64,000 nt of DNA from Escherichia coli (lineage in GTDB: Bacteria; Pseudomonadota; Gammaproteobacteria; Enterobacterales; Enterobacteriaceae), in assembly GCF_041886205.1 (NCBI RefSeq), contig NZ_CP169029.1; one strand, 5' to 3'. The position numbers were made by a program, and so were the translations under genes. Positions 32,363-33,100 of the stretch are shown here, one piece after another; position 1 is the stretch's first letter; every line of letters starts with the position of its first letter. The notes under the pieces were generated by a model. The model was not told where the DNA came from and ran no database searches. It saw nothing but the letters and a program-made list of their open reading frames with translations.

Positions 32363-33100
32363 ATGTCACAGTCTACATCCGTGCTTCGTCGTAATGGATT
32401 TACTTTTAAACAGTTTTTTGTTGCTCACGATCGCTGTGCGATGAAAGTGGGAACGGATGGCATATTGCTGGGCGCATGGGTACCGGTGGCTGGGGTAAAA
32501 CGTTGCCTTGATATCGGTGCGGGTAGCGGGTTACTGGCTTTAATGCTGGCGCAGCGAACCGATGACAGCGTGATGATTGATGCAGTTGAACTGGAAAGTG
32601 AAGCTGCCGCGCAGGCGCAGGAAAATATCAACCAGTCCCCGTGGGCAGAGCGGATTAACGTCCATACGGCGGATATTCAGCAGTGGATCACACAGCAGAC
32701 AGTACGCTTCGATTTAATCATCAGTAACCCACCTTACTATCAGCAGGGAGTAGAGTGCGCGACCCCTCAACGGGAACAGGCTCGCTATACCACTACGCTT
32801 GATCACCCATCGTTGCTGACCTGTGCGGCAGAGTGCATTACCGAAGAGGGATTTTTCTGCGTGGTGCTGCCAGAGCAGATTGGTAATGGTTTTACTGAAC
32901 TGGCATTAAGCATGGGCTGGCATTTACGTTTGCGGACGGATGTGGCGGAAAACGAAGCGCGACTGCCGCATCGGGTGCTGCTGGCATTCTCCCCGCAGGC
33001 GGGAGAATGCTTTAGCGATCGCTTAGTCATTCGTGGGCCAGACCAGAACTATTCCGAAGCGTATACGGCGCTGACCCAGGCTTTTTATCTGTTTATGTAA
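32363..33100 (+). CDS. trmN6: tRNA (adenine37-N6)-methyltransferase TrmN6/YfiC
   Basis: ORF 32243..33100; start placed at [13 protein letters not shown] (245 aa); SAM-binding GxGxG and NPPY motif. Confidence 0.85.

Follow-up and report, generated by a model that had tools for sequence, protein, structure and literature searches.

Overlapping convergent gene pairs of Escherichia coli and the formation of mRNA 3′ ends inside partner coding sequences

Introduction

Convergent genes whose stop codons overlap raise the question of where, and by what means, each transcript ends when there is no DNA between the two reading frames. In the window (the whole stretch of Escherichia coli DNA analysed here, 64,000 nt in length) this question is posed by three gene pairs, trmN/nadB, kgtP/yfiM and tadA/mltF. 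The gene order of the window, in reverse K-12 orientation, is trmD/rplS, rrnG, kgtP, pssA, srmB, nadB, rpoE, rnc, tadA, mltF and purL to yphG.

Three gene pairs overlapping at their stop codons

The longest overlap is formed by trmN (also named yfiC or trmN6; 32363..33100, + strand), which encodes tRNA(Val) m6A37 methyltransferase and ends with a TAA stop at 33098-33100, and nadB (33085..34707, − strand), which encodes L-aspartate oxidase and whose TAA stop is the reverse complement of 33085-33087. The 16 nt shared by these genes, ttatctgtttatgtaa (33085..33100, both strands), were read directly and are doubly coding: they encode TrmN ..FYLFM* and NadB ..YINR*, and the last five codons (stop included) of both genes are coded on both strands. 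Another pair is composed of kgtP (19383..20681, + strand; alpha-ketoglutarate permease; TAG stop at 20679-20681) and yfiM (20678..21001, − strand; lipoprotein; TAA stop, the reverse complement of 20678-20680). These share the 4-nt stop tetramer TTAG (20678..20681), read as TAG on the + strand and as TAA on the − strand. The third pair consists of tadA (47262..47765, + strand; tRNA adenosine(34) deaminase; TAA stop at 47763-47765) and mltF (47762..49318, − strand; lytic murein transglycosylase F; TAA stop, the reverse complement of 47762-47764), with the 4-nt shared-stop tetramer TTAA (47762..47765). Overlaps of 16, 4 and 4 nt had been claimed for these pairs in the initial annotation, and the open reading frame (ORF) ends and stop codons, read directly, place all three exactly there.

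The same overlaps are found in the PGAP annotation of NZ_AP045833.1 (a 100% identical genome) and in the K-12 MG1655 record, where the coordinates are mltF 2695801-2697357 / tadA 2697354-2697857, nadB 2710420-2712042 / yfiC 2712027-2712764 and yfiM 2724128-2724451 / kgtP 2724448-2725746. The 96-nt trmN/nadB junction was detected in 5408 of 5426 complete E. coli genomes (at least 90% identity), and the 6-kb piece around it is present in 5424 of the 5426, with 95–100% identity.

It could be argued that one stop codon in each pair was mis-called and that the genes have no real overlap. Start codons are indeed uncertain here, as the longest ORFs extend further upstream than the annotated starts of trmN (32243 versus 32363, 120 nt), tadA (47229 versus 47262, 33 nt) and yfiM (21022 versus 21001, 21 nt). 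Stops, however, are fixed by the reading frame and leave no choice to the annotator. All six partners are named, conserved RefSeq genes and not spurious ORFs; they are full-length members of known families, with C-terminal positions conserved across genera. Homologues of TrmN, YfiM and TadA with matching Pfam domains occur across the Enterobacteriaceae, and in other genera the partner genes were called with the domains expected of them. The stops of PGAP also agree with those of the curated K-12 record. An annotation artefact is therefore hardly credible, and mis-annotated stops were rejected; only recoding (a frameshift or stop readthrough) could rescue this idea, and no sign of either was seen. 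Database homologues of TadA vary in length between 161 and 183 aa, mainly because of differing start calls and variable C-terminal tails.

Number and size of the overlaps

The window contains 11 convergent pairs, three of which overlap, and the other eight are separated by gaps of 42–208 nt. Genome-wide, E. coli is estimated to possess approximately 550–700 convergent pairs. When the 58 convergent overlaps counted in E. coli (Lillo and Krakauer 2007, PMC2174442) are set among this estimated number of pairs, the binomial probability of finding at least three overlaps in 11 pairs is 0.06–0.10, and non-random clustering of the three overlaps was rejected as not significant.

The tetramers TTAA, TTAG, CTAA and CTAG each carry a stop on both strands, which gives rise to a jump at 4 nt in the length distribution of such overlaps (PMC2174442). 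Both 4-nt overlaps of the window (TTAG and TTAA) follow this shared-stop rule, and their size is thus predicted by stop-codon geometry. The 16-nt overlap corresponds to five codons, stop included, far fewer than the about 21 codons within which a random stop is expected (3 stops per 64).

The three junctions are convergent overlapping gene pairs with all the defining features of this class. Like the pairs analysed by Lillo and Krakauer (PMC2174442), they lie on opposite strands, share their 3′ ends and show the TTAA and TTAG tetramers; there is no essential difference, the 16-nt trmN/nadB overlap being a longer member. The overlaps are real, ordinary and already known, the class having been analysed in 2007 and these three pairs named in 2025. 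As a discovery the contribution is small, since the overlaps already stand in the standard E. coli annotation and no new mechanism is involved.

Termination signals at the junctions

Terminators of convergent overlapping genes must lie within coding sequence, and an intrinsic terminator was predicted for only 20% of such genes (PMC2174442). The claim that no terminator can sit between the overlapping pairs is borne out here, as there is no intergenic DNA at any of the three. Scans for a hairpin followed by a T-run around the three junctions gave counts at or below shuffle expectation, and none of the six stops is followed by a convincing intrinsic terminator. A bidirectional intrinsic terminator (a GC-rich hairpin with a U tract for each strand, placed between the stops) is absent at the three junctions. 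Folding of the six 3′ extensions (E. coli alone) gave structures whose stability did not exceed that of shuffled sequences (z from −0.98 to +0.32), and Rfam at gathering thresholds detected no known RNA family at the three junctions.

A terminator-like hairpin of 8 pairs followed by TGTTTTTT, with a T-run extending to ~21012, lies at 21022-21042 (− strand), between pssA and yfiM. It is a strong match but was rejected as a junction terminator, being the terminator of pssA, located upstream of yfiM and away from the junction. It ends ~10 nt before the annotated yfiM start (21001), so that yfiM seems to lie immediately behind this terminator, and no promoter was predicted for yfiM.

Published 3′-end and Rho maps are in line with read-in for kgtP and tadA. 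The K-12 positions of Adams et al. (2021) were transferred to the window (2724397 to 20732, 2724366 to 20763, 2697064 to 48055 and 2697105 to 48014). Two of these, K-12 2724397 and 2724366, are Term-seq 3′ ends of the kgtP strand, classed as 'antisense yfiM' (Adams et al. 2021). The end at 20732 lies inside yfiM, 51 nt past the kgtP stop; a 7-bp stem-loop without a U tract (20708-20725, + strand) precedes it by 7 nt. The second end, at 20763, also inside yfiM and 82 nt past the stop, coincides with the final 5′-arm base of a GC-rich 9-bp stem-loop (20755..20776, + strand), i.e. within a stem and not after it, and may be a cleavage or pause site.

On the tadA strand, a bicyclomycin-sensitive Rho termination region is located at 48055 (+ strand; K-12 2697064; Rho score 9.6, p 2e-18; Adams et al. 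2021), 290 nt past the tadA stop and antisense to mltF. Another Rho termination region, on the mltF sense strand, is found at 48014 (− strand; K-12 2697105; score 3.2), 252 nt before the mltF stop. These opposite-strand regions are only 41 nt apart inside mltF, which may reflect converging transcription or a common sequence feature. The data of Adams et al. (2021) contain no Rho-region entry for the kgtP, yfiM, nadB or trmN extensions. For 3′ ends near nadB/yfiC there is no entry in Adams et al. (2021) and none in the TERMITe tables, and a literature search found no paper joining nadB with Term-seq.

All six extensions contain, no more than 240 nt from the stop, an 80-nt segment with a C/G ratio of 1.69–2.17 (window-wide 95th percentile, 1.73), although this C-rich, G-poor (rut-like) criterion is permissive, as antisense strands of genes may be generally C-rich. 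In the tadA extension the C-rich stretch occupies +161 to +240, just upstream of the Rho region of that strand.

Rho-dependent mRNAs end just past stable stem-loops without U tracts, with rut sites immediately downstream (Dar and Sorek 2018, PMC6061677). The kgtP end at 20732, 7 nt past a U-less stem-loop, has the same layout, and so has the candidate stem-loop of nadB described below; the likeness extends to the C-rich, G-poor sequence downstream and to the bicyclomycin-sensitive region on the tadA strand. Unlike in the cases of Dar and Sorek, the protective structure and the presumed rut site are embedded in the coding sequence (CDS) of the partner and not in a 3′ UTR, and Rho dependence was measured for tadA only.

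Read-in between convergent neighbours

For each of the three pairs, overlapping transcripts are listed in at least 50% of the 58 RNA-seq samples of MG1655 (ExcludonFinder Table 1, NAR 2025, PMC12288877). The initial annotation had stated that transcripts of the overlapping pairs must read into the partner gene. This holds for kgtP, with its 3′ ends inside yfiM, and for tadA, with its Rho region inside mltF; at nadB/trmN it is the RNA-seq listing that speaks for it.

Read-in is not confined to genes with overlapping CDSs. Rho termination regions lie inside the partner gene, on both strands, at the non-overlapping pairs srmB/yfiE (gap of 208 nt) and ung/yfiF (gap of 47 nt), and on the yfhL strand only at yfhL/shoB. 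The published Rho regions antisense to yfiF, ung, srmB and shoB map to window positions 27270, 27907, 31165 and 44999, respectively, and the yfiE-antisense region (K-12 2714601) has no match in this strain within 3 mismatches. Read-in thus occurs between convergent neighbours with and without shared CDS ends and is not caused by CDS overlap, which is just the far end of a continuum. Across the whole genome, 51.5% of Rho termination regions lie antisense to genes, and no more than 4.5% fall in the 50 nt that follow a gene (Adams et al. 2021). The junctions of the window provide a clean worked example of mRNA 3′ ends formed where there is no intergenic space, with Rho-type ends and stem-loops in the partner CDS and double-stranded RNA (dsRNA) at one junction.

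Conservation of the junctions

Relatives of TrmN were scanned with one genome per species, and the best 80 loci were retained, almost all of which are labelled Enterobacteriaceae (one record title names Chryseobacterium). Among the 79 of these loci with nadB downstream, the trmN/nadB overlap is exactly 16 nt in 76, the others having 8, 8 and 12 nt. The identity of the stops varies (TAA, TGA or TAG in trmN, TAA or TAG in nadB). In Intestinirhabdus alba (L027 3739-4170) nadB has been deleted and trmN is followed by the rpoE region. Outside the family, the locus of a TrmN homologue with 54% identity carries a gene for a branched-chain amino-acid transporter that separates trmN from nadB (L094 3506-4885), and that of a homologue with 46% identity (L096) shows the order srmB-trmN-rpoE, without nadB.

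The 4-nt kgtP/yfiM overlap is retained in four of the five genera sampled (Salmonella bongori, Enterobacter kobei, Cronobacter sakazakii and Citrobacter braakii), and Shimwellia blattae has a 4-nt gap. The tadA/mltF junction was compared in Salmonella (50-nt gap), Kosakonia (39-nt gap), Yokenella (7-nt overlap) and Enterobacter (4-nt overlap), Klebsiella not being in the sample. The C-terminal tails of TadA and MltF are both hypervariable. This range, from a 50-nt gap to a 7-nt overlap, together with the variable tails, argues against selection for overlap as such. In the genomes compared, overlap as such is thus not consistently maintained; it is frozen where two conserved C-termini are coded by the same bases (nadB/trmN). 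The frozen nadB/trmN, the mostly kept kgtP/yfiM and the labile tadA/mltF junctions together call for caution in inferring function from overlap.

The 50-nt tadA-mltF spacer of Salmonella enterica (L090 2553-2602) holds a GC-rich, REP-like palindromic sequence (GCCGGATAAGGCGTTGCG...).

A candidate stem-loop at the 3′ end of nadB

Within the last 22 codons of trmN, RNAalifold predicts a candidate conserved stem-loop of 14 pairs, without a U tract, on the nadB-sense strand (33034..33078, − strand), which sets in 7 nt past the nadB stop. Across 75 distinct sequences, pairing is seen in 96% of the cells, compared with 27–43% when the partners are slid. Four pairs have changed on both sides, foremost one with GC 28, AU 26 and GU 14 (Fisher p = 1.5e-4, without phylogeny correction). 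The structure is strand-specific: on the trmN strand 79% of the cells pair, the mean energy is −20.6 kcal/mol on the nadB strand versus −13.0 kcal/mol on the trmN strand, and in 74 of 75 species the more stable fold is that of the nadB strand. By mean single-sequence energy the stem-loop ranks first of 910 windows. With RIBOSUM alifold it is first of 924, marginally (−20.9 versus −20.5) and not as an outlier on that scan alone, and with default parameters an alifold scan of 73 sequences did not predict the nadB hairpin at all. On the trmN-sense strand inside nadB, a conserved structure was likewise considered and rejected, RNAalifold giving just −5.5 kcal/mol and one compensatory pair.

Two four-fold-degenerate codons in the stem, Gly GGG (33035-37; a non-preferred codon) and Thr ACC (33074-76), base-pair with each other. 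They have the second and fourth lowest synonymous variation among the 189 conserved four-fold codons of trmN and nadB, and the chance of such low ranks for both is ~3e-4 in this post hoc test. In Intestinirhabdus alba, the single case of nadB loss, the conserved bases of the stem are replaced and no stem is left; a disrupted stem is likewise found in the locus with the 12-nt overlap, which retains nadB.

As it has no U tract, the stem-loop is not an intrinsic terminator. We tentatively propose that it may act as a protective 3′ structure of a nadB mRNA terminated by Rho, a putative role on which doubt and belief are close to balance, with doubt slightly ahead. The candidate is a small new lead, namely an RNA structure that would limit synonymous change in an adjacent gene.

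The 5′ arm of the stem-loop contains CCAGG (33076-33080), a site of Dcm methylation and very-short-patch repair, which could help to lower the substitution rate there independently of RNA structure. Further upstream in the trmN CDS, a perfect 10-bp palindromic hairpin is found at 32984-33010 (GCATTCTCCC..GGGAGAATGC), able to form on both strands, of which only 4 pairs are conserved in other genera.

Antisense pairing at the kgtP/yfiM junction

Read-in had been suggested to create antisense interference. A p19-captured RNA duplex cut by RNase III and listed as 'kgtP yfiM' spans the kgtP/yfiM junction (20680..20702; reads 1266 and 494; Huang et al. 2020), and sense and antisense RNAs therefore pair there in vivo. 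A second p19-captured duplex lies inside yfiM (20792..20814), 111–133 nt past the kgtP stop (Huang et al. 2020). Among the matches listed in that study there is no p19 duplex for nadB/yfiC or tadA/mltF. In a literature search no pair-specific regulatory effect was found for any of the three pairs. The suggestion thus has dsRNA support at one junction, kgtP/yfiM, and no sign of a regulatory consequence at any of the three.

Formation of the 3′ ends and alternative explanations

The explanation that we favour, and consider probable, is that these are packed convergent genes in which the 3′ end of each mRNA is formed inside the CDS of the partner by Rho and subsequent trimming. That each end lies inside the partner CDS follows from the lack of intergenic DNA. 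The ribosome would depart at the stop codon, leaving downstream of it an untranslated RNA that is antisense to the partner gene, C-rich and G-poor. Rho would load on this RNA and terminate transcription within a few hundred nucleotides, and exonucleases would then trim the transcript back to stable stem-loops without a U tract. The outcome would be an obligatory sense/antisense overlap of ~50–300 nt, able to pair and to be cut by RNase III. The kgtP 3′ ends and the tadA Rho region are established by published data; we infer Rho dependence at the other four 3′ ends, a protective role for the stem-loops and the operation of the Rho/trimming mechanism at nadB/trmN. Two observations sit uneasily with this explanation. 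One is the kgtP 3′ end at 20763, inside a stem, for which trimming does not account. The other is the near-invariance of the 16-nt nadB/trmN overlap (exact in 76 of 79 species loci) and the adjoining strand-specific stem-loop with suppressed synonymous change, on account of which selection beyond that on the two proteins is possible at nadB/trmN.

A rival explanation is that the overlaps are kept so that one gene switches its partner off by transcriptional interference and RNase III, resulting in mutually exclusive expression. The E. coli 'excludome' table, which collects neighbours whose transcripts overlap, includes all three pairs (mltF-tadA, nadB-yfiC and yfiM-kgtP), and excludon pairs as a class have higher synteny and less single-cell co-expression (PMC12288877). 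The RNase III-cut dsRNA at kgtP/yfiM, the retention of that overlap in four of five genera and the fixation of the nadB/trmN overlap across the family also agree with this proposal. On the other side, the table is derived from RNA-seq coverage, for which CDS overlap makes an entry near-automatic once both genes are expressed, and opposing expression, the defining property of excludons, is not part of the evidence for these pairs; the authors themselves state that dsRNA validation of convergent excludons was not feasible (PMC12288877). Classical excludons also differ in that a long antisense read-through is tied there to a switch between related functions. The partners have no evident functional link (NAD synthesis and tRNA methylation, a permease and a lipoprotein, a tRNA deaminase and a murein hydrolase), three of four other genera have lost the tadA/mltF overlap or have it at another length, and the conservation of the 16 nt is explained by the double coding of two conserved C-termini. 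Moreover, two groups inserted multi-kb cassettes at the yfiM-kgtP junction for ectopic expression, with no problem mentioned in the available portions of their papers. We therefore regard selected excludons as unlikely. A further reading, restricted to nadB/trmN, is that the 16-nt overlap and the stem-loop make up a selected RNA module, in which the 3′ end and stability of nadB mRNA would be set by a structure encoded in synonymous sites of the last 22 trmN codons. The loss of the stem alongside nadB in Intestinirhabdus alba fits it, as one case. If true, such a module would couple the expression of an NAD-synthesis gene with that of a tRNA-modification gene; we think it improbable, to much the same degree as selected excludons.

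A different way of dispensing with a terminator would be collision, in which head-on RNA polymerases meet near the junction, at sites determined by nascent stem-loops, and trailing polymerases aid release in both directions. Wang et al. (2022 preprint, 10.1101/2022.10.23.513370) described this mechanism, which needs a nascent stem-loop, at convergent pairs of E. coli. The junctions of the window resemble those pairs in their convergent arrangement and in having stem-loops close to where the genes end, shortly after the stops of nadB (33034-33078) and kgtP (20708-20725 and 20755-20776); the opposite-strand termination regions at 48014 and 48055, 41 nt apart inside mltF, may also be read in its favour. 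The intergenic hairpin flanked by A and U tracts, characteristic of the pairs of Wang et al. (10.1101/2022.10.23.513370), is however missing at all three junctions, and with it any bidirectional terminator of the A-tract/hairpin/U-tract type. The two regions inside mltF were defined by bicyclomycin sensitivity and are hence Rho-dependent, and nadB/trmN gave no Term-seq peak in the data of Adams et al. (2021). The six genes of the three pairs are generally weakly expressed, which counts against a process that needs multi-polymerase traffic. Collision-driven bidirectional termination is, in our view, quite unlikely, marginally more so than selected excludons.

Packing of convergent genes, with Rho-dependent and trimmed 3′ ends in the partner CDS, remains the preferred reading. 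The arrangement is most likely a tolerated by-product of this packing, locked in where both C-termini are constrained (nadB/trmN), and it does not look like a dedicated regulatory device. It is noteworthy that the 'yfiM-kgtP intergenic region' is named as the insertion site in the available portions of two recent papers, although the two CDSs overlap by 4 nt and have no intergenic region.

Other RNA elements in the window

Several Rfam matches were found elsewhere in the window. These are: AsrC, the antisense RNA of rseC (37290-38121, − strand; 514 bits), rncO (40905-41119), GlmY (53797-53944), RyfD (10883-11021), OhsC (44532-44596, − strand) and ES036 (30781-30823), the last of which is located in the convergent spacer between yfiE and srmB.
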